Of a DNA stretch of 60,768 bases, positions 2,607 through 60,768 are shown in pieces; position 1 is the stretch's first letter; each line of letters begins with the position of its first letter. The DNA is from a virus: the IMG/VR virus record IMGVR_UViG_3300045988_117276; one strand, written 5' to 3'. The notes below the pieces were generated by a model that made no database searches, was not told where the DNA came from, and saw only the letters and a program-made list of their open reading frames with translations. The translations under genes and the position numbers were made by a program.

Positions 2607-5249
2607 TTATTCTAATTCTTCAATCAATGAATCTTCAACTTCTTCTATCAATTCTCCGCCACGAACTACAAGGCCACCGTTAGCTGCAGAAAATCCTTCC
2701 GACACAAATCCCTTACCGAAAGTTATCAATCCTTCTGCTTTGTCATCTTCAATGCTGCTAAGGGAGCGACGTTCAATCTCATCAATAATTCTTTTTGCCG
2801 AAAATGTATTGCGATCCGTAGGAACAGTCTTGTCATTCAAACCGATGAGATATATACTCGTTCCTCCACTTCCTGACACAGAACCGGTATATGCCTGTCC
2901 CTTGTATGTAAGAGAATCAAGTTTGCTTTCTATCTCGCCTATACGCGAATATGAGGCAGTCTCTCCAACCGTATAAATTGGATGATCGTAAGGAATATCC
3001 AGCGGCCACTCAAAACCAATTATTCTGGATTGTCTGCTTTTAGGAAAGAAAGCCTTATTGATCAGGTTAACTTTGTCTCCCACCTCATAGGTGATAATAT
3101 TCTCATTATTATAGATGAACTCAGGGTCCATATCACAATCGTAGGTGGAAGGATCAATCATAGACTTTTTGACATAGTCTTTTGCCTTTTTCAATAACTC
3201 ATCTTCGGCCTCCGGAATCAATTCTTCTGAGACATAAGCCGTATCAAAACCATAAAGAACATATGTGTCAGAATCAGCAGGAAACAAAATGTCATCAGGA
3301 AGGTAACGGCCGTAATCCTCATTACGCACAATTTCGAAAGTGGTACCGGAATCATCACTCTCCTGCAGAAGTAACTCAAAGTCCAGGCCGGCGAGTTTGC
3401 CCGTCTGAAAGGTCAAGCGGAAACTTTCTCCGTCCAGCCGGAAGTCATTTGTAAAATTCTTCAACCCTGCATCCTTGAACGTATAGATACGATACTTGTC
3501 TCCGGTTGGATTGTCGTCCTCGTCAAGTTCATCTTCCTCCCGGTATGTTACATTTGATAATGTGCCGACATATTTGGGATGTTCATCTTCAAAGATGACA
3601 ATTCCCTCTACAGCTTCTTCCTGCGACATCTCCACATTATTATTGTCATCATAATGAGTTTCACCAATGTATATACGTTCTCCAGTAGGACTATAACGGT
3701 AAGCATCCACATAAGGAACTTCCTCCGGGAGCATAAGACGTTTCTGGACCACACCATTTAAAGTAAGCTCCTTGTCATCTTTGCTAAAGTAGCTGTCAGG
3801 AACCTTTCCCTTAATGATGTTGTCAATTGTATATCTATCACCGAGCGAGGCCGTTACTCCGCTAGGCAATTGTATTACGTTAGCGGAATCACCGATTAAA
3901 TGGTCCGGATTATATACACAGGAGAATGTCTTACCCGAATTTAGTCCGGAAAGAAAGGTCACTGTAGCATCTGCCGACGATCCTTTGAATAGAGTTATAT
4001 CATACGAAACATAAGCCGAGAAAGAATCATTCAGAATAGAGGATTCACGGGATGGGACATGTGCGTATATCCTGATCTTTAAATCAGTAGCATTCCCTTC
4101 AATCTGCAAAGAAGAAGCGACAGCAAACACAGCAGAGACTTCGTACTGCTGCTCTTGGGATAAGGTAACCGTTTGATTACCTATAGAAACTTCTTTAGTT
4201 ACACCAGATAATTTATAGACATAAGATGCCCTCAAAACATAATCACCGGCAGGAAGAAAAGAACGTCCTGATCCGATTGAAGGAATAACCGTGGATACAT
4301 TAATTGATATGCCTTCTCCTGATGAAACCTTATAATCTCCTGCAGGTAACGAAGTTACGATATCAGTGTCATGCGTCCATTCTACATAAGATGCAGTAAA
4401 ACTGCCACTACCTATACTTTCCTTTACCGGATACTCTTCTTTGTGAACGACGCGACTTGGGAAATACTTTACATCAAGCGGTCTTGCCGTATCGGATATT
4501 TCCCTACCGTTTGCCTGCTTGACATCAAAAATAAGATTCTTACGGTAAGTAGAAGGAATGTTTCGCGTTGAACCAAAGGCATAAACACGAGTAGCGAAAA
4601 CCGTCTGACTATCGCTACGCTGCATGGAGCTTACGTTTACATCCTCAGTATCTGTCAAATCTCCGGCCTTGAAATCTACGGGAGAGCTGTATTCGCAACG
4701 TCCGAAATGAATTGTCTTATCAGTTATCCACCATTCACACTCCCATGTCTCCGCCATTTGGGTAAGGGCATCAATCAGGTTTACGCTATCATACGAAACG
4801 AGCTTGGAAGTGTTTTCAACCGTAGTGTCAATCTCATATTTAAAATCCTCTTCTCTATATTTGTATCCGAGTGATTTCAGGTTATCAAGGAAGACTTTAA
4901 GATGAACGTCAAGAGTGGCTGTCAGGTTCCAGCTCGCCTCGCGACCGGTACTCTCCGGAGTATAGAAAAACTTCTTGTTTTTCCACTTCCAGTAGTAGGC
5001 GTCCAGCCGGAGTTCGTAATCATAACCACCGCTCGTAGAATTATAGGTGGGCTTGTACAAGTCTACAAGCTCAAACATGCCAATATTTTCGTCATCAATG
5101 TAATCCCCGAGCTGAAAGTAGACAGGTTCAGCTAATGAGAACTTGAGAGTAATGTAATCAGAACTCATTAGCTGGAACTTTCTTTTACTACCTTCGTTGA
5201 TAGGAGTAGAAAAACGAATGTTGCCGGATATGTCTTTGATGTCTATCAT
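2607..5249 (-). CDS. Tail-associated/baseplate hub protein (Tal-like minor structural protein)
   Basis: 880-aa ORF directly after Dit and before the fibre. The N-terminus (MIDIKDISGNIRF...YDYELRLDAYYWKWKNKKFFY...CEWWITDKTIHFG) resembles siphophage Tal/prophage-tail proteins. The start is moved to the ATG at 5249 because the track start at 5285 lies inside a terminator hairpin. Confidence 0.7.
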   Translation of the reverse strand: MIDIKDISGNIRFSTPINEGSKRKFQLMSSDYITLKFSLAEPVYFQLGDYIDDENIGMFELVDLYKPTYNSTSGGYDYELRLDAYYWKWKNKKFFYTPESTGREASWNLTATLDVHLKVFLDNLKSLGYKYREEDFKYEIDTTVENTSKLVSYDSVNLIDALTQMAETWECEWWITDKTIHFGRCEYSSPVDFKAGDLTDTEDVNVSSMQRSDSQTVFATRVYAFGSTRNIPSTYRKNLIFDVKQANGREISDTARPLDVKYFPSRVVHKEEYPVKESIGSGSFTASYVEWTHDTDIVTSLPAGDYKVSSGEGISINVSTVIPSIGSGRSFLPAGDYVLRASYVYKLSGVTKEVSIGNQTVTLSQEQQYEVSAVFAVASSLQIEGNATDLKIRIYAHVPSRESSILNDSFSAYVSYDITLFKGSSADATVTFLSGLNSGKTFSCVYNPDHLIGDSANVIQLPSGVTASLGDRYTIDNIIKGKVPDSYFSKDDKELTLNGVVQKRLMLPEEVPYVDAYRYSPTGERIYIGETHYDDNNNVEMSQEEAVEGIVIFEDEHPKYVGTLSNVTYREEDELDEDDNPTGDKYRIYTFKDAGLKNFTNDFRLDGESFRLTFQTGKLAGLDFELLLQESDDSGTTFEIVRNEDYGRYLPDDILFPADSDTYVLYGFDTAYVSEELIPEAEDELLKKAKDYVKKSMIDPSTYDCDMDPEFIYNNENIITYEVGDKVNLINKAFFPKSRQSRIIGFEWPLDIPYDHPIYTVGETASYSRIGEIESKLDSLTYKGQAYTGSVSGSGGTSIYLIGLNDKTVPTDRNTFSAKRIIDEIERRSLSSIEDDKAEGLITFGKGFVSEGFSAANGGLVVRGGELIEEVEDSLIEELE

Positions 5250-41667: not shown

Positions 41668-41800
41668 AATAAGTATCTGCATATTCATCTGCGCTTCGTT
41701 CAGAGAGAGGTACCATAGCAATAAAAGTTAAAGCGACCAGCTCCAAAGTTGCGGTTGGAAGGGTCTAATAAAACAAAGTACCGCAATACATAGTTGTTTG

Positions 41801-41841
41801 AAAATAAAAATATCCGCAATAGGTTGCAGCTACTACGGATA
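41801..41841 (-). terminator. Rho-independent terminator (minus strand)
   Basis: Minus strand reads TATCCGTAGTA-GCTGCAACC-TATTGCGGATA (11 pairs including G.U) followed by TTTTTATTTT. Confidence 0.5.
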
Positions 41842-41912
41842 CCATATATTAAACTTCTTATGAGGAAAGTTTAATCACTTTGTCTCTGTAACATCTGCAA
41901 CTTGTTACGACA

Positions 41913-41920
41913 CAAAGATA
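41913..41920 (-). promoter_or_regulatory. -7 box TATCTTTG inside an imperfect 15-bp inverted repeat (operator-like)
   Basis: ctttgtctctgtaac...gttacgacacaaag (41878..41917), 20 nt upstream of the repressor ATG and divergent from it. Confidence 0.4.
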
Positions 41921-41936
41921 CAGAAATATATTCAGT

Positions 41937-42440
41937 ATGACAACAAAAGATAGATTAATAACATTTCTTGCATATATAAATATAAGTCAAGGAAGATTCG
42001 AAAAGGGAGTTGGTTTATCGACTGGCTTTGTTAACAATGTAGGAGATAGCATAAGAAAATCTTCTCTTGATAAAATCTCGTCTGTATATCCAGAATTAAA
42101 TACAGCATGGCTACTCACGGGTGTTGGGAATATGATAAATGAAAATAAAAATAACGTAGGAAGAGATAACTATGGTGTCCAAGGAGGTGGCTCTCAAAAC
42201 ATTTCAGGCAACATGGTTAACGTAACTATGCCCGAATCCGGGACCCAAAAAATTATTAAGCCTACCGGAGAGGTTGAAATACAGCGACTAGACCCAAGCG
42301 ACAAATCAAACTCGGGCGAGCTCGATAGGCTACAACAGCGTATTCAAGATTTGGAAAGAATTATATCTGAAAAAGACGCTACAATAAAGTCTAAGGATGA
42401 TTTAATATGTGTGCTGAAAGAAATGCTCAATAGGCAGTAA
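41937..42440 (+). CDS. CI-like phage repressor (N-terminal HTH, C-terminal coiled coil)
   Basis: RLITFLAYINISQGRFEKGVGLSTGFVNNVG...YPELNTAWLLTGVG. Lysogeny-module position. Confidence 0.55.
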   Translation: MTTKDRLITFLAYINISQGRFEKGVGLSTGFVNNVGDSIRKSSLDKISSVYPELNTAWLLTGVGNMINENKNNVGRDNYGVQGGGSQNISGNMVNVTMPESGTQKIIKPTGEVEIQRLDPSDKSNSGELDRLQQRIQDLERIISEKDATIKSKDDLICVLKEMLNRQ

Positions 42441-42631
42441 GTGTTAGGTTAAGGTTATGTTTTATTCGTAAAATTATACAACAGGTAAAATACGAAAAAG
42501 TTTAATAAAAACATCATATAAAACAAGAATTTATAAGACAAAAGTCATTATAAACAACAATTAGATATATTAATCAATAAAAATACGATGTATTAAAAGT
42601 AAAACTAATCAATGGCATTTATAGAAAAGCT

Positions 42632-42970
42632 ATGAATATTAAAAGAAACTGTATATTTCTACTCGATAAAGAGAAAGACAAAACTGACGCAAAGCTTCGC
42701 TACCGAATAAAATGGGGAGATAACATCGTCGCGTTTAATGTGGGATACCGGGTGGACATAGACAAGTGGAGCCCAGACAGTCAACGCTGCAAGAATAATA
42801 CAACACACGGCACAAAAAAGGTTCATTCTTCCATTATAAATAAAGCTATTCAAAATTATGAGGATATATGCGACAATTTGGATCATTGCCTCTATATGAC
42901 TTTTGCAGTCTATTACTTTGATGCATTTATCCAAGACCAGTCCGCCTTCCGGGTAGGTCTTGTTATTTAG
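42632..42970 (+). pseudogene. Truncated tyrosine integrase: arm-type DNA-binding N-terminus only
   Basis: LRYRIKWGDNIVAFNVGYRVDIDKWSPDSQRCKNNTTHGTKKVHSSIINKAIQNYED resembles Bacteroidetes integrase N-termini. Similarity stops after about 85 aa. There is no catalytic domain anywhere in the genome. Confidence 0.5.
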
Positions 42971-44062: not shown

Positions 44063-44141
44063 ATCTTTATTTTTTTAGTTGTTATTACTTTGTTTCTTAT
44101 TTTGATGTTACAAAGATACAAATAGTTTTTGTAATATCAAA
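44063..44141 (-). promoter_or_regulatory. Promoter (-33 TTTG 44138..44141, -7 TATCTTTG 44111..44118) plus 56-nt leader; copy of 20101..20180
   Basis: The reverse complement of 44063..44118 equals 20125..20180 apart from 2 mismatches and 1 indel. 19-nt spacer. Confidence 0.6.
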
Positions 44142-44191
44142 CTTTTAAGGCTAGAAAGTTTCGGTCATATCAAACTTTAACATTTGGGCAT

Positions 44192-44220
44192 AAAAAAGCC
44201 CGGCATGTTGTATACCGGGC
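44192..44220 (-). terminator. Rho-independent terminator ending the Ntn-hydrolase cassette
   Basis: Minus strand reads GCCCGG-tatacaacatg-CCGGGC followed by TTTTTT. Confidence 0.7.
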
Positions 44221-44248
44221 AATTCCATTATAAATACCATACTAAGGA

Positions 44249-44467
44249 TTATTGATCTTCATTTATCTTTTCGTCCAGCTTCTGGTGTTGTTCTTCTTTT
44301 GCTATAGCTATTTGGCGGCTAATCTCATCTAAAATAGATTCAGTAACCCGATCAACCATTGAATCTAATTCGTAATTAGAGATATTGCACAAATTGTCAT
44401 CATCAAGTTCTGAAATATTAAATATTTGCTTGCTTGAAATTCCTCTTTTATAATACATTGTTTCCAT
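44249..44467 (-). CDS. Small acidic protein (72 aa) coupled to the Ntn hydrolase
   Basis: ATG 3 nt after the hydrolase stop; a terminator follows. Confidence 0.55.
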   Translation of the reverse strand: METMYYKRGISSKQIFNISELDDDNLCNISNYELDSMVDRVTESILDEISRQIAIAKEEQHQKLDEKINEDQ

Positions 44468-44470
44468 ACG

Positions 44471-45751
44471 TCATTTTATATAATAGTTTGAGAAAAAATG
44501 ATGATTCAAATCTGGTTGAAAATAATGTTTTCTTTTAATCCAAACAAAACCGTCACTCTTTGATATTATCGCGACATCAACAGGTCCTCCTACGGTTTCC
44601 TCAGAAGACATCATCCGTCTTTTTAAGAAAGTTAGGGAAATAAGACTTTCTGCCATTTCTGCCATATCTTCCTTCTCTAAGTAGGCTACAGTATCAACAA
44701 GTGGGGAAATATATTGTTTACCAATTATATTATTTATAGCTTCATCAAATACTTTTCTTATTCCTGAAATATCCAGCTTTTCTATGGCTGTAGATAATAT
44801 TGAATCTCCATTATTTGCTTTTATCGTATTAGAGACTAGCGTTGAATATGCGTTTAACGATTTAAAAAACAGGTCACTTACAAAGTGCTTAACACTGGGA
44901 TCGATACCTGTCAAAATGGTCTCCATAACATCAGTTTGAGCAAAAGGGCAAATCGCAGCCATATTATTTTCTGATATAACTGCTTCTGACTGTTTGTCAT
45001 AAGAGTATTTCAAAAAACCATCAAAAGCTGTTGAAACATTGATAGATTTTAATGATGGGAAAATATCAAATTTACCATAACCAACAAATACCAATCCTGT
45101 ATATCCTAACAGATTGAAACTAGACTTCAAAAATGAAAAAGCTGTTTGTTTTGCATGCTCGTATAATTCCGGAGAAGCTCCTGTATGATTTACGATATAA
45201 TTATATAATTCATCAAGTATATCTATAGAGTACTTTTCAAATTTTTCAAAGGTGTATGATTTTAACCCTTCACAAGGTTCTGATTTATCCAATTTTTCTT
45301 TTAAAGAAGATAATTCGTCTTTAATCGTTTTAAAAAGATAAGGCTTATTAGAGTCTGTGACTTCCCCACCAATTATAGCTATCGCCTTTCTTTCTATATC
45401 TTGATAAAGCCTAAAAATATGCATACGAAGGACTTTTCTTTGGAAACCTTCACTACAGAAGAAAGAATTATCAGATAAAAATTTAATGAAATCCGAAATG
45501 TAATCCGAAACAGAATTAAAATCCTTTTCTTTTAAATTGTCCCTATATAGTTTGACAATCACATCCCAAGGAGTCCCTAAAAAAGACGAAGAACTATATA
45601 TCATTACCGCTATGGGATGATATTTGGATATTGTTATTATTTTATTGGCTTGATTTAGTACTTTACGTCCTAATGTTCCATTTATTGTTGCTGCGCTATC
45701 CGCAGCTACAGCAACTGCATGTTTATTTAAAACTCCAACTATCGCTGTCAT
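44471..45751 (-). CDS. Proteasome/HslV-like Ntn (Thr1) hydrolase with a large helical insertion
   Basis: M-TAIVGVLNKHAVAVAADSAAT aligns with HslV [21 protein letters not shown] (Thr1 and Asp17 in register; a Lys falls near position 33-36). The C-terminal VGGPVDVAIISKSDGFVWI resembles the beta-subunit SGG...dG strand. About 250 aa lie between the two segments. Confidence 0.55.
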   Translation of the reverse strand: MTAIVGVLNKHAVAVAADSAATINGTLGRKVLNQANKIITISKYHPIAVMIYSSSSFLGTPWDVIVKLYRDNLKEKDFNSVSDYISDFIKFLSDNSFFCSEGFQRKVLRMHIFRLYQDIERKAIAIIGGEVTDSNKPYLFKTIKDELSSLKEKLDKSEPCEGLKSYTFEKFEKYSIDILDELYNYIVNHTGASPELYEHAKQTAFSFLKSSFNLLGYTGLVFVGYGKFDIFPSLKSINVSTAFDGFLKYSYDKQSEAVISENNMAAICPFAQTDVMETILTGIDPSVKHFVSDLFFKSLNAYSTLVSNTIKANNGDSILSTAIEKLDISGIRKVFDEAINNIIGKQYISPLVDTVAYLEKEDMAEMAESLISLTFLKRRMMSSEETVGGPVDVAIISKSDGFVWIKRKHYFQPDLNHHFFSNYYIK

Positions 45752-45765
45752 ATATTATAAAATTG

Positions 45766-45804
45766 GTGTACACAAAGATATATAATCTTTTTATTTCAAA
45801 CAAA
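45766..45804 (-). promoter_or_regulatory. Promoter for the Ntn cassette: -7 TATCTTTG (45773..45780), -33 TTTG (45801..45804), abutting the palindrome GTGTACAC
   Basis: TAnnTTTG match with a 20-nt spacer. The 8-bp palindrome at 45766..45773 overlaps the -7 box. Confidence 0.45.
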
Positions 45805-46030
45805 TATAATTCAAAATCTAATATATTTTATATACATAACAATATAACCCTCGCAATAATCACAAAGGGAATCAGCCAATACAACCACCTTTCTAGGCGT
45901 TCCATAGCATCACAAGCAGGAGCCGGCAGAAATCCGAGTGATACCGGTCGTCGGCCTGTGAAATCAAATCATCTATGTAGTCTTTTTCTCTCATTTTCGC
46001 CTGTTACATATATTTCTAACAAAATGCCCC

Positions 46031-46456
46031 TTAATATCTTCGACATAAGTTTTTCCTGCAATGTTCACACAAGAAGTTCTTCGCTATTGGGAACATCTTC
46101 TGACCTACCTCGCTGGAAAGATATTGGGCTTCCTCCCCATAGGGATCAATATTGAACACCTGTGAGATATGCCGGCACAAGTGCCCTTTTTCGTGGTCCC
46201 ATGAGTTTTGGAACTCTCCCGGGGAAGAAGTGAGAGCAATTACCATAACAGTCTCACGGTCCTCAAAGTCCGAATAAGTAAGACCGGTATTGAGAGCCCC
46301 GGAAGAGAGGTTTCTGTACGCTTGTTTGAAATCCTCCCCTCTACAACCGATACGGTGAAGTTCGCACAGAATCTCACTGGTCCAGTAAGTCGTTACGGCA
46401 TAATACACCCTAACTCTCCAATCATATTTCGGTATGTAGAAATCCTGAACTATCAT
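46031..46456 (-). CDS. Small putative zinc metallopeptidase (HExxH)
   Basis: WDHEKGHLCRH contains HEKGH; several Cys/His lie nearby. Confidence 0.45.
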   Translation of the reverse strand: MIVQDFYIPKYDWRVRVYYAVTTYWTSEILCELHRIGCRGEDFKQAYRNLSSGALNTGLTYSDFEDRETVMVIALTSSPGEFQNSWDHEKGHLCRHISQVFNIDPYGEEAQYLSSEVGQKMFPIAKNFLCEHCRKNLCRRY

Positions 46457-46458
46457 AA

Positions 46459-46938
46459 TCAGAGCATATCATCCCATATTATAGGTGTGCCGCTTCCGAT
46501 GCAATCTGCATAGAAACGGGTAAAAGGAAGTCCGTCATATCCGTCTGGATCATCTATATAATCCTTCACAAATAACGCCAGATGGGCTTCATCCATGATG
46601 GAACTCTTATAATAATCAGCTTTCGCCATATTGGCTACATATACGCAATCGTACCCGGCGTCTTTCTCCAGTTTAATTCCGTATTTCTTCAGAAGCTCCT
46701 CCACCTCTTCCTTTTTGATCGGAACGAGCTTTTCCTCCTGCTTGGTAGTCTTGTTCTCAACCTCCATTTTAGAAACAGCCCATTCACACATCTTCTTAGA
46801 GAAGTGCCAACCGTATAATGACAGATAATTTTTCATTGCCGGCGGCATCTTGTCATACGTATCTAGTCTTTGTCCCATAATTAATTGCTTTTTAGAATAA
46901 GAGGGGATTTCTCCCCTCATACGATTAATAGAACTCAC
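46459..46938 (-). CDS. Hypothetical protein (159 aa)
   Basis: ORF. Confidence 0.5.
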   Translation of the reverse strand: MSSINRMRGEIPSYSKKQLIMGQRLDTYDKMPPAMKNYLSLYGWHFSKKMCEWAVSKMEVENKTTKQEEKLVPIKKEEVEELLKKYGIKLEKDAGYDCVYVANMAKADYYKSSIMDEAHLALFVKDYIDDPDGYDGLPFTRFYADCIGSGTPIIWDDML

Positions 46939-59268: not shown

Positions 59269-60768
59269 TTATGCCGTTTTATTCCTTCCTATAACTACGA
59301 CCTCAAATGCACTATTAATCCATCCCTGGTCTTTATGAAATGTCTTTACTGTAAAAGTATTGGACTGTTTATCGGATATTATACAAATAGTCCAATTTTC
59401 ATTTACCCCTGTAGCTATTATAAAATAATCAGTATGATTTAAATCGTGCCGAAAGACATAGTTACCTGTATCCGTCCTGCTGACACTCATATAACACCCA
59501 TCCCCCCATCTGTTTGATATACCACCTGCTCCTGTGATGCGTCCAGCCCATAACGCTCCCGGAGCATTCCATTTTTCGCCTTTTCTCTGAATAAATTCAT
59601 GCGATCCAGCGCTTGAAATCGCATTAGATGCTCCATTACCAAGAATACTTAATACGTCTTTACCCGAACCTCCACTAAGACTCACAGCAGATCCTTTGTC
59701 ATTTCTTACTGAAAGTAGCGCAGCAGCAGGATTTCTCATTCCATACTCATTTATGCGAAGGAAATGAACACCATTCTCTTCAATTAAGATTGATCCATTC
59801 TCATTTAGAGAAGAAAGCGCATCACCCTCAATTTTAAAGCCCGCTATTTTCCCACCATCGGCCTCAATAGTTCCTTTGAATATGTACTTCTTAGTTAACG
59901 GATCAAGTTCAAAGACTATCTCATTATCAACCAGTGCGAAAATTCCGGTACGCTTTTCTCCGTCAACTGTGATACAATCTCGACCAATAGCAACTCCGGT
60001 CAGTTTACCATTGCTATCCTTCGTACCAGAAAACATCTTTGGGGATACGATATACTCCCCGTCAATCTCTGTCTTATTATTATTCCATTGTTCGACCCAA
60101 GGGAGTAGATTCGCGTCTTTTCCGTCCTCTCCCGGAATACCAGGTTCACCCGGTTTACCATCCTTCCCGTAATGACCAAAGAGACGATAGTTCTTATACT
60201 CTCCCCACTTTCCATCTTGCAGAGTACGCTCACAAGTGTACTCATAAGGATAAGTTTCCGATGCTCCACGAGGATTATCCACCCACCAGAGCACATCTTC
60301 CCAGTATGTTTCATTAGTCGGAACAATCCCCGAATGCGCCTGAATAGCTACCTTGTATACATCATTGTATTTTACTATGTTACCTGCCGAATAGAATTTT
60401 GAGCTACTGTATTCAGGAGCATCACCAATGTATTCGTTAACATATTCGTTGGATGCCGGAAGGTCAATAACATTACGCTTAGACTTTGCAAGCAGGTAAA
60501 CCTGCTCCTCGGTCTTGGAGTCCGTTGGGAATATGACAGGTTCGCTCCAGGAAGGAGTTGTTTTACCATCAATCACTGCAGTGGAATACCAACAGGTAGT
60601 AGGATCGAGCATACGAAACTTGACTCTGTCCTCGTTACTACTTGTGCTGCTGTCTTTCGTGTATACAATTTCAACAAAGTGACTGCCGGCTGTAGGCACT
60701 GCAATATCCACCACCACATTGGTTACTCCACTTCCCTCCCAGGCATGTTCGTTGGAACTGCTATATGA
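59269..60768 (-). CDS. Giant collagen-like tail fibre, C-terminal 499 codons plus stop (5' part is 2605..56)
   Basis: The frame is open to the window end: codons upstream of the track's GTG 'start' at 60717 read ...SYSSSNEHAWEGSGVTN. Contains GKDGKPGEPGIPGEDGKD. Confidence 0.85.
   Translation of the reverse strand, partial: SYSSSNEHAWEGSGVTNVVVDIAVPTAGSHFVEIVYTKDSSTSSNEDRVKFRMLDPTTCWYSTAVIDGKTTPSWSEPVIFPTDSKTEEQVYLLAKSKRNVIDLPASNEYVNEYIGDAPEYSSSKFYSAGNIVKYNDVYKVAIQAHSGIVPTNETYWEDVLWWVDNPRGASETYPYEYTCERTLQDGKWGEYKNYRLFGHYGKDGKPGEPGIPGEDGKDANLLPWVEQWNNNKTEIDGEYIVSPKMFSGTKDSNGKLTGVAIGRDCITVDGEKRTGIFALVDNEIVFELDPLTKKYIFKGTIEADGGKIAGFKIEGDALSSLNENGSILIEENGVHFLRINEYGMRNPAAALLSVRNDKGSAVSLSGGSGKDVLSILGNGASNAISSAGSHEFIQRKGEKWNAPGALWAGRITGAGGISNRWGDGCYMSVSRTDTGNYVFRHDLNHTDYFIIATGVNENWTICIISDKQSNTFTVKTFHKDQGWINSAFEVVVIGRNKTA
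60714..60768. repeat. Terminal direct duplication, identical to 1..55
   Basis: See 1..55. Confidence 0.95.

Follow-up and report, generated by a model that had tools for sequence, protein, structure and literature searches.

A predicted proteasome-like threonine hydrolase and its small partner in an exchangeable cassette of a Bacteroides-type siphophage

Described proteasome homologues and the phage cassette

Sequence analysis has extended the proteasome family by 22 new homologues, including a group named PMI for proteasome homologs with multiple insertions (Fuchs, Alva and Lupas, 2021, Bioinformatics 37:4694; PMC8665760). Within this group, only PMI-3 and PMI-4 have both insertion sites. 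PMI-4, whose representative is HDY66466.1, carries a long insertion after helices H1/H2 and another between H3/H4. Of the two, it alone is large (it has more members than any other of the new families), has no propeptide, occurs in all major bacterial phyla, among them Proteobacteria, Firmicutes and Bacteroidetes, and was flagged in phages, with its function unassigned and no informative genomic context reported (PMC8665760). The present analysis concerns a two-gene cassette that encodes a likely member of this family. The cassette lies in the IMG/VR virus record IMGVR_UViG_3300045988_117276, a stretch of 60,768 nucleotides (nt) that is referred to as the window. It comprises a gene for a predicted proteasome-beta-like N-terminal nucleophile (Ntn) hydrolase with an N-terminal threonine (Thr1) of 426 amino acids (aa; 44471-45751, minus strand, as are all features of the cassette given below) and, after a 3-nt gap, a gene for a partner protein of 72 aa (44249-44467). 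Both open reading frames (ORFs), at this spacing, had been pointed out in an earlier note on this DNA and are indeed present. The same note had missed that this family of proteasome homologues, phage members included, was catalogued in 2021 (PMC8665760), this enzyme most likely falling into PMI-4.

Assignment of the enzyme to PMI-4, its best fit, is likely and was made by published architecture and distribution only. Common to both are the Thr1/Asp17/Lys33 core, the lack of a propeptide, both insertion sites and the occurrence in phages. In comparison to PMI-4 as published, the family seen from the window additionally shows a small partner gene, the behaviour of a moron and neighbourhoods with defence and toxin-antitoxin (TA) genes. 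The enzyme adds to a catalogued family without founding a fold or class of its own. Novelty seems to lie in its obligate partner gene, in the clear-cut presence/absence polymorphism at a slot for TA cargo and in neighbourhoods of the defence type. A literature search found no later work on PMI-4 and nothing relevant in one citing review. The family is large, with 6023 matches in a word-indexed search, all of them unnamed or 'hypothetical', and 5929 clusters at 50% identity. Its members are found in phages of Porphyromonas, Providencia and Stenotrophomonas and in Streptococcus satellites, and relatives are present in Bacteroidota genomes.

The 20S beta subunits and HslV (MEROPS T1) share with the enzyme the Ntn alpha-beta-beta-alpha sandwich (predicted here), Thr1, an Asp or Glu at position 17 and Lys33, and the beta subunit of Thermoplasma acidophilum also shares a strand of the form ...GG.[IV]DVAVI...DG[FY]. 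However, HslV is a compact subunit of ~175 aa that has no insertions and is encoded with the AAA+ protein HslU, whereas the 426-aa enzyme has ~190 extra residues in two helical insertions, escapes the PF00227 model and does not clearly retain Gly47, Ser129 and Ser169. It also differs from both in having neither an HslU/AAA+ partner nor an alpha subunit, in being part of a mobile two-gene cassette and in probably not forming rings. Another relative, connectase, is a monomeric archaeal proteasome homologue that acts as a sequence-specific protein ligase (PMC8665760). A helical insertion over its active site gives high specificity, which makes connectase a precedent for a function that is neither ring-based nor degradative. 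Its insertion is located between S3 and S4 and it has no H1/H2, whereas the enzyme retains H1 and H2 and has its insertions elsewhere. In addition, connectase is confined to methanogenic archaea, lacks a small partner gene and is absent from mobile elements, in contrast to the enzyme, which occurs in bacteria and phages.

Active site and predicted architecture of the enzyme

The enzyme matches PHROG 5990, a family of unknown function, over its full length (E 4.9e-100). Its placement among the proteasome-beta-like hydrolases draws on conserved residues, a profile of the family, and an AlphaFold2 (AF2) model compared by Foldseek. Its N-terminus reads MTAIVGVLNKHAVAVAADSAAT, and an in-frame TAA two codons 5' of the ATG establishes Met-Thr as the true start. 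Among 265 family proteins, 245 begin with MT, while the others mostly begin with MS or have over-extended starts with an internal MT. Methionine aminopeptidase removes Met before small penultimate residues, Thr included. As no propeptide is present, removal of Met1 would expose the Thr nucleophile, and Asp17, Lys33 and a Glu in place of Asp166 would complete the active site.

Two alignments were used to follow these residues: a narrow one of 34 homologues and a wide one of 142 rows, in which the window protein is joined by 141 cluster representatives with 30-45% identity to it. The HMMER register against the T. acidophilum beta subunit (1pma_B) places T2 on Thr1, D18 on Glu17 and K37 on Lys33. 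Together with conservation, this register defines the codons equivalent to the catalytic triad (45641-45748), namely Thr2 (45746-45748), Asp18 (45698-45700) and Lys37 (45641-45643). The residues M1, T2, D18, S19 and K37 and the motif EE[ST]VGGPVD are invariant in the narrow alignment. In the wide alignment, position T2 is Thr in 137 rows and Ser in three, D18 and K37 are each kept in 140 of 140 ungapped rows, and Q272 is present in 142/142. The register of Thr1 and Asp17 that the earlier note had read from the letters is thus recovered by HMMER; of the two positions it had offered for the Lys33 equivalent, 29 or 36, the second is the match (K37, mature position 36), and the first drops out, with K30 conserved only to ~90%. 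That Thr1, Asp17 and Lys33 are so strictly kept suggests that the enzyme is active.

The C-terminal part of the core (H4, S10 and S11; 44516-44680) carries the near-invariant EE[ST]VGGPVDVA...DGF and aligns to D166-S169-G170 and strand S10 of the beta subunit. In the wide alignment, the individual counts are 137 for E385, 141 for V387, 138 for G388, 136 for G389 and 141 for D392. The stretch EE[ST]VGGPVDVAVISKGDGFV of the enzyme is aligned by HMMER to DSASGGMIDVAVITRKDGYV of the T. acidophilum subunit, which agrees with the likeness to the SGG...dG strand of beta subunits noticed before. The supporting residues of the proteasomal active site follow less closely. The Asp166 region holds E385 (137/142) or E384, Ser169 aligns to the invariant V387 or to G388, the region of Ser129 reads P-F-A-Q with the invariant Q272, and position 53, which aligns to Gly47 by sequence, is N in 64, G in 50 and S in 23 of the 142 rows. 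Of the residues proposed for checking, Thr1, Asp17 and Lys33 are accordingly found, whereas equivalents of Ser129 and Ser169 show no clear conservation.

A comparison of the family profile with the Protein Data Bank (PDB) gave the T. acidophilum proteasome beta subunit as its three best matches (E 0.05). In the full profile, one match spans Thr1 to Lys33 and a second spans DSASGGMIDVAVITRKDGYV, so that both termini are covered. When the insertions were removed from the profile, the E-value reached 7e-4 and the top three matches were again all T. acidophilum beta, while a phmmer search of the PDB with the single sequence returned chance matches only. The AF2 model of the enzyme monomer has a mean predicted local distance difference test score (pLDDT) of 84 and a predicted TM-score (pTM) of 0.80. 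Its elements run in the order S1-S5, H1 (62-73), H2 (81-94), five inserted helices, S6-S9, H3, three inserted helices, H4, S10 and S11. A Foldseek search of the PDB with this model yielded 20S subunits or Anbu as hits 1-46 (46 of the best 50), at a probability of up to 1.00 and, for the predicted structure, a TM-score of ~0.5 normalised to the target. The best match in BFVD is a siphovirus 'Proteasome beta type-2 subunit'. The Foldseek check that had been suggested thereby leads to 20S and Anbu, and the predicted model has the Ntn alpha-beta-beta-alpha order. Residue conservation, the matches of the profile to the PDB and the predicted fold agree in identifying the enzyme as a proteasome-like Ntn hydrolase and, to judge from its sequence, as a distant proteasome homologue outside the curated PF00227 model.

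The first insertion, delimited by DSSP on the model, comes after core helix H2, where the 'pore loop' is located (~aa 98-213, ~116 aa; 45113-45460) and contains helices at residues 101-126, 136-156, 168-174, 176-189 and 194-209 (pLDDT >90). The second, recognised from the model helices at 285-314, 317-324 and 328-357, lies between H3 and H4 (~aa 285-357, ~73 aa; 44681-44899). These positions correspond to insertion sites 3 and 4, respectively, as defined for the new homologues (PMC8665760). The long helical insertion of ~250 aa proposed earlier is therefore real in the model as regards its helical nature, but it consists of two segments of together ~190 aa, with S6-S9 and H3 of the core between them. 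Both insertions would build a helical domain on the beta-sandwich, and this domain may prevent the stacking of rings and confer substrate specificity, as in connectase. From the insertion sites and the analogy with connectase, a site-specific peptidase or transpeptidase is to be expected, not a degradation chamber.

The architecture bears directly on the idea that the enzyme is a housekeeping-type, self-compartmentalising protease for bulk degradation, arranged in rings like HslV or the 20S particle and merely hitch-hiking on mobile elements. The proteasome fold and the catalytic residues would fit such a role, as would the loci at which the pair stands among housekeeping genes. It is nevertheless very improbable: insertions at the pore-loop site and at the H3/H4 site of ring-ring contact are expected to block the assembly of proteasome-like rings and double rings (PMC8665760), no AAA+ unfoldase gene was found consistently adjacent in the window or in annotated homologous loci, and the cassette occurs sporadically and varies in presence even where the flanks of sibling phages are 99% identical.

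The enzyme ends in a conserved tail (aa 413-426, ...PDLNHHFFSNYYIK; 44474-44515) that combines conservation with predicted disorder. L415, N416 and Y423 are invariant in the 34 homologues, although the model assigns residues 408-426 a pLDDT below 50. Conservation of this kind suggests that the tail may bind the partner or take part in oligomerisation, and both the tail (408-426) and the active-site loop (384-388) may serve as contact sites.

The partner gene and the cargo slot

The partner gene was defined by its position and by a family alignment. In the window, the enzyme stop and the partner start form TGA-CGT-ATG (44465-44473), with the 3-nt gap leaving both ORFs in the same reading frame. 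Readthrough of the stop codon would fuse the two window ORFs, an arrangement that is probably incidental; programmed readthrough was considered and rejected, since spacing and frame vary among homologues. The partner survey covered 80 loci from species-representative genomes as well as viral contigs, annotated phages, satellites, prophages and chromosomes. An ATG-initiated ORF of 47-86 aa, starting -8 to +19 nt from the enzyme stop, is present at 73 of 74 genome loci; over all 80 such loci, the partner is frameshifted once and missing once. The partner also follows the enzyme gene in annotated phages, satellites, prophages and chromosomes, and it is present even in viral contigs with an enzyme only 28-35% identical. 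The earlier reading of the small downstream gene as a partner is well borne out by this conservation. The description of the partner as acidic fits the window protein, with an isoelectric point (pI) of 4.3, but not the family, in which pI ranges from 4.2 to 10.4 with a median of 5.75. Frameshifted copies were seen for the enzyme in L222 (5001-6280) and for the partner in L062 (~2620-2900) and L215 (~3530-3800), and represent either assembly errors or decaying cassettes.

Partner proteins combine a variable N-terminal half with a conserved amphipathic helix, EI[SA][ED][IV]VS[ED]K[IL]I..[VI]K.QFE, to which MVDRVTESILDEISRQIAIAKEE of the window partner conforms; 76 of 100 partners fall into one BLAST cluster. 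The second gene would encode a small, fast-evolving helical protein, translationally coupled to the enzyme and obligate across the family. Its most plausible role is regulatory: it may act on the enzyme as an inhibitor or pseudosubstrate, in the manner of an antitoxin, or it may be an adaptor. A different relationship, in which the small protein is the substrate, cut or ligated at a short motif to give a bioactive peptide or a modified protein in the manner of connectase, would have a precedent in the ability of proteasome homologues to act as sequence-specific ligases (PMC8665760). It could also draw on the motif F-x(1,2)-P, which occurs in the N-terminal third of 15/42 partner clusters against 4.6 +/- 1.8 in shuffles, control motifs not being enriched, and which is found in clades whose partners are otherwise unalignable; this motif was, however, defined post hoc on clusters that are not phylogenetically independent. 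The enrichment is a weak hint that the enzyme recognises a linear segment of the partner. The window partner has IFNIS, without Pro, at the corresponding place (44408-44422), the best-conserved partner region is the amphipathic helix and not a linear motif, and the partner has no signal peptide and no export genes nearby, all of which makes a processing or ligation pair rather improbable. In distant-clade partners, a pattern phi-F-(N/K)-x-(S/P) is frequent, with the instances FFNVP, FFNIP, FFNLS, FFKLP, KFNPS and YFKPQ (loci L225, L229, L230, L231, L238, L239, L244, L261, L003, L234 and L227).

The boundaries of the cassette emerge from a comparison with sibling phages, a set of 80 viral contigs that are the best matches to the nearby DUF7841 gene (72-100% identity at the protein level). 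All 80 keep the flank p105-DUF7841-p141 and none carries the enzyme or the partner. Their flanks align to the window at ~82-99% nt identity, and the homology runs down to 45820-45842 and, where it resumes, does so at 44234-44201. In L103, L111 and L112, 21 nt stand in place of window positions 44202-45833, which defines an accessory cassette of 1632 nt with promoter, two genes and terminator. Its GC content of 31.1%, compared to 38.8% for the genome, is in the lowest 2% of equal-sized windows. The designation as a moron, made before from the sequence, is proven by these siblings with similar flanks, no cassette and precise junctions. A role as a virion maturation protease was rejected, as the cassette is absent in siblings with 99% identical flanks.

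A promoter motif of the Bacteroidota type, TTTG (-33)...TATCTTTG (-7), ends 21 nt 5' of the enzyme ATG (45773-45804), in agreement with the earlier promoter claim. The pattern TTTG-N17-23-TAnnTTTG has seven sites in the window against 2.9 expected, and another TTTG/TAnnTTTG site precedes the next gene (44111-44141). The motif at 45773-45804 is a putative promoter, deduced from the consensus only, and the pair would be expressed from it. The palindrome GTGTACAC, which had been noted as overlapping the promoter, is present; it occurs once in the window and the upstream regions of homologous cassettes are unrelated, so that it was rejected as an operator and is given no weight. At the other end, an intrinsic terminator (44189-44234) consists of a hairpin of nine pairs, six of them GC (44198-44220), followed by TTTTTT. 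The clean terminator assigned to the cassette earlier is thus real but not private to it: it serves at once as the right-hand boundary of the cargo slot, and its sequence ends an NYN cargo in L104 and a HicAB cargo in L109.

The slot between p141 and a helix-turn-helix (HTH) gene is a hotspot of cargo exchange (window 44189-44234 and 45820-45842; L103 7040-7290, L104 7050-8110, L109 7020-7960). Its left junction carries TAnnTTTG in siblings and its right side is the common terminator AATGGAATTGCCCGGTATACAACATGCCGGGCTTTTTT; empty slots use a different hairpin, CCCTGGTTATGTAACTGGGG. From the conserved left junction and the common terminator, cargo seems to be exchanged between a conserved promoter region and a terminator. 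In the siblings, the slot holds an NYN nuclease, HicA with HicB, a HicB-like trio, a SocA/Panacea antitoxin with a 127-aa protein, or HTH-P63C. The HicAB and Panacea-antitoxin modules share slot, left junction and terminator with the cassette and resemble it as small, autonomous, translationally coupled two-gene cargo of sporadic distribution. In contrast, they have no sequence or fold relation to it, and the effector of the cassette would be a Thr1 hydrolase, which does not belong to a known class of TA toxins or defence effectors.

The company of TA cargo raises the question of pure addiction, in which the hydrolase would be a growth-arresting toxin, neutralised by a labile partner, that stabilises the mobile element and has no dedicated anti-phage role. 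The toxin-first, translationally coupled two-gene layout is what such a module would show, the sibling slot holds the likewise toxin-first HicAB and a Panacea-antitoxin pair, and an enzyme without an intact partner is very rare (one absent and one or two frameshifted among ~125 loci). On the other hand, the pair recurs beside restriction-modification (R-M) and abortive infection (Abi) genes, and many TA systems also defend, by which this explanation overlaps with a broader role in conflict instead of excluding it. Addiction pure and simple is on balance unlikely.

The phage itself is a complete circular assembly of 60,713 bp: positions 1-55 of the window are identical to 60714-60768, and this 55-nt terminal overlap indicates a circularly closed assembly. 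Portal, large terminase and tape-measure genes are present, no tRNA genes were found in the window, and the closest database relatives are Bacteroides and human-gut phages. The phage is a Bacteroides-type siphophage, and its siblings with an integrase represent a temperate lineage. Their tyrosine integrase of 434-445 aa is encoded downstream of the cargo slot (L111 6710-8014, L114 7823-9160). In the window, the place of this gene (41800-42900) is taken by ~1 kb of other sequence, as it is in L119 and L135, and the phage could be a variant of the temperate lineage that has no integrase and is either non-integrating or virulent. Directly upstream of the cassette, a protein of 141 aa (46031-46456, minus strand) has a HExxH-like DHEKGH motif and no Pfam or PHROG match; on this motif, it could be a small metallopeptidase-like protein. 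Its gene follows the DUF7841 gene (46459-46938) in all 80 siblings, directly so in nearly all.

Genomic neighbourhoods and possible function

In other genomes, the pair is found in a range of accessory contexts. It lies downstream of the type III R-M genes Mod and Res at one locus, and at another between Schlafen/AlbA_2 and AAA_13 and AIPR genes inside a polysaccharide locus. At prophage ends it is located beside lysis genes, UmuDC or an integrase, and in Streptococcus satellites it occupies the ends of the elements. In a Providencia phage, it follows antiterminator Q and a DNA adenine methylase gene and precedes the holin. R-M and Abi families are common among the 147 neighbours at 25 species-level loci, with counts for ResIII (5), N6_Mtase (3), SWI2_SNF2 (3), Eco57I (3), PD-T4-6-like kinases (3) and AbiEii (2). 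A DUF6808 gene adjoins the pair in two different prophage contexts of Bacteroidales, on the downstream side in one and on the upstream side in the other, and may be a co-travelling accessory gene (L005 6568-7038, L007 6568-7038, L091 7376-7837). In a Cyclobacteriaceae chromosome (L009, 4850-8523), unlike the loci on mobile elements, the pair stands between DUF4350 and a MoxR-type AAA+ ATPase in a conserved DUF4129/DUF4350/MoxR operon, its start overlapping the DUF4350 gene by 4 nt.

Carriage by phages and satellites, at positions that adjoin late or lysis genes in lambdoid-like and Stenotrophomonas phages, would also suit a weapon of the phage, namely a protease that cleaves a host defence or regulatory protein, with the small protein as adaptor or timer; a specific protease is a plausible tool against defence. 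The distribution speaks against this, as most copies are chromosomal or in prophages (488 matched stretches in species-representative genomes versus 108 viral contigs, obtained with nearly the same motif patterns) and several lie in defence islands, with R-M and Abi genes next to them. Moreover, the cassette has its own promoter and terminator and fills a slot otherwise filled by TA modules, and its absence from siblings with near-identical flanks means that it is dispensable for infection. A counter-defence protease is therefore a poor candidate.

The genomic context favours a role in defence, in exclusion or of a TA-like kind: a mobile, polymorphic and self-promoted cassette, found in a TA slot here and in defence neighbourhoods elsewhere, points to a conflict module. 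The cassette is probably such a mobile module, made up of a proteasome-like site-specific hydrolase and its small partner and serving superinfection exclusion, anti-phage defence or abortive infection, although this is held with some reserve. Several observations weigh against it. The relation of the enzyme to the proteasome is of modest significance at the sequence level (E 7e-4 at best), PF00227 gives no match to it at E up to 1, Gly47 of the oxyanion site, Ser129 and Ser169 lack clearly conserved equivalents, and the Foldseek E-value is only ~1e-3 because the insertions dilute the alignment. Scans of both proteins with Pfam and NCBIfam gave nothing meaningful, PADLOC-DB v2.0.0 (5027 models) contains no family that matches either protein at E up to 1, and partners from distant clades are not alignable to the Bacteroidota partner family. 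As regards context, the neighbour counts have no background control and make the association with defence islands qualitative only, and a second sample of 17 loci showed mostly housekeeping neighbours with few integrase, HEPN or ResIII genes. No tblastn match to the sibling integrase was found in the window, and expression of the cassette from a lysogen is thus not assured for this phage. Finally, a literature search for proteasome-like or Ntn hydrolases in phage defence found nothing.

A more specific form of the conflict module is conceivable but somewhat doubtful: a new immune or exclusion system in which a site-specific Thr1 hydrolase of the PMI type is checked or targeted by a co-evolving helical partner and has been spread across phyla by phages, satellites and defence islands.

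The newly described context features give testable handles on a large family that is known only from the sequence catalogue of 2021. Should the enzyme be sequence-specific like connectase, a use in biotechnology would be possible. If the role in defence, exclusion or TA-like conflict is true, it would be the first biological role for a branch of the proteasome family, and the N-terminal-threonine hydrolase would represent a new effector chemistry in bacterial immunity. It would also be the first time that any of the 22 new proteasome homologues is assigned a function and that an enzyme of the proteasome family is seen in the conflict between phages and bacteria.

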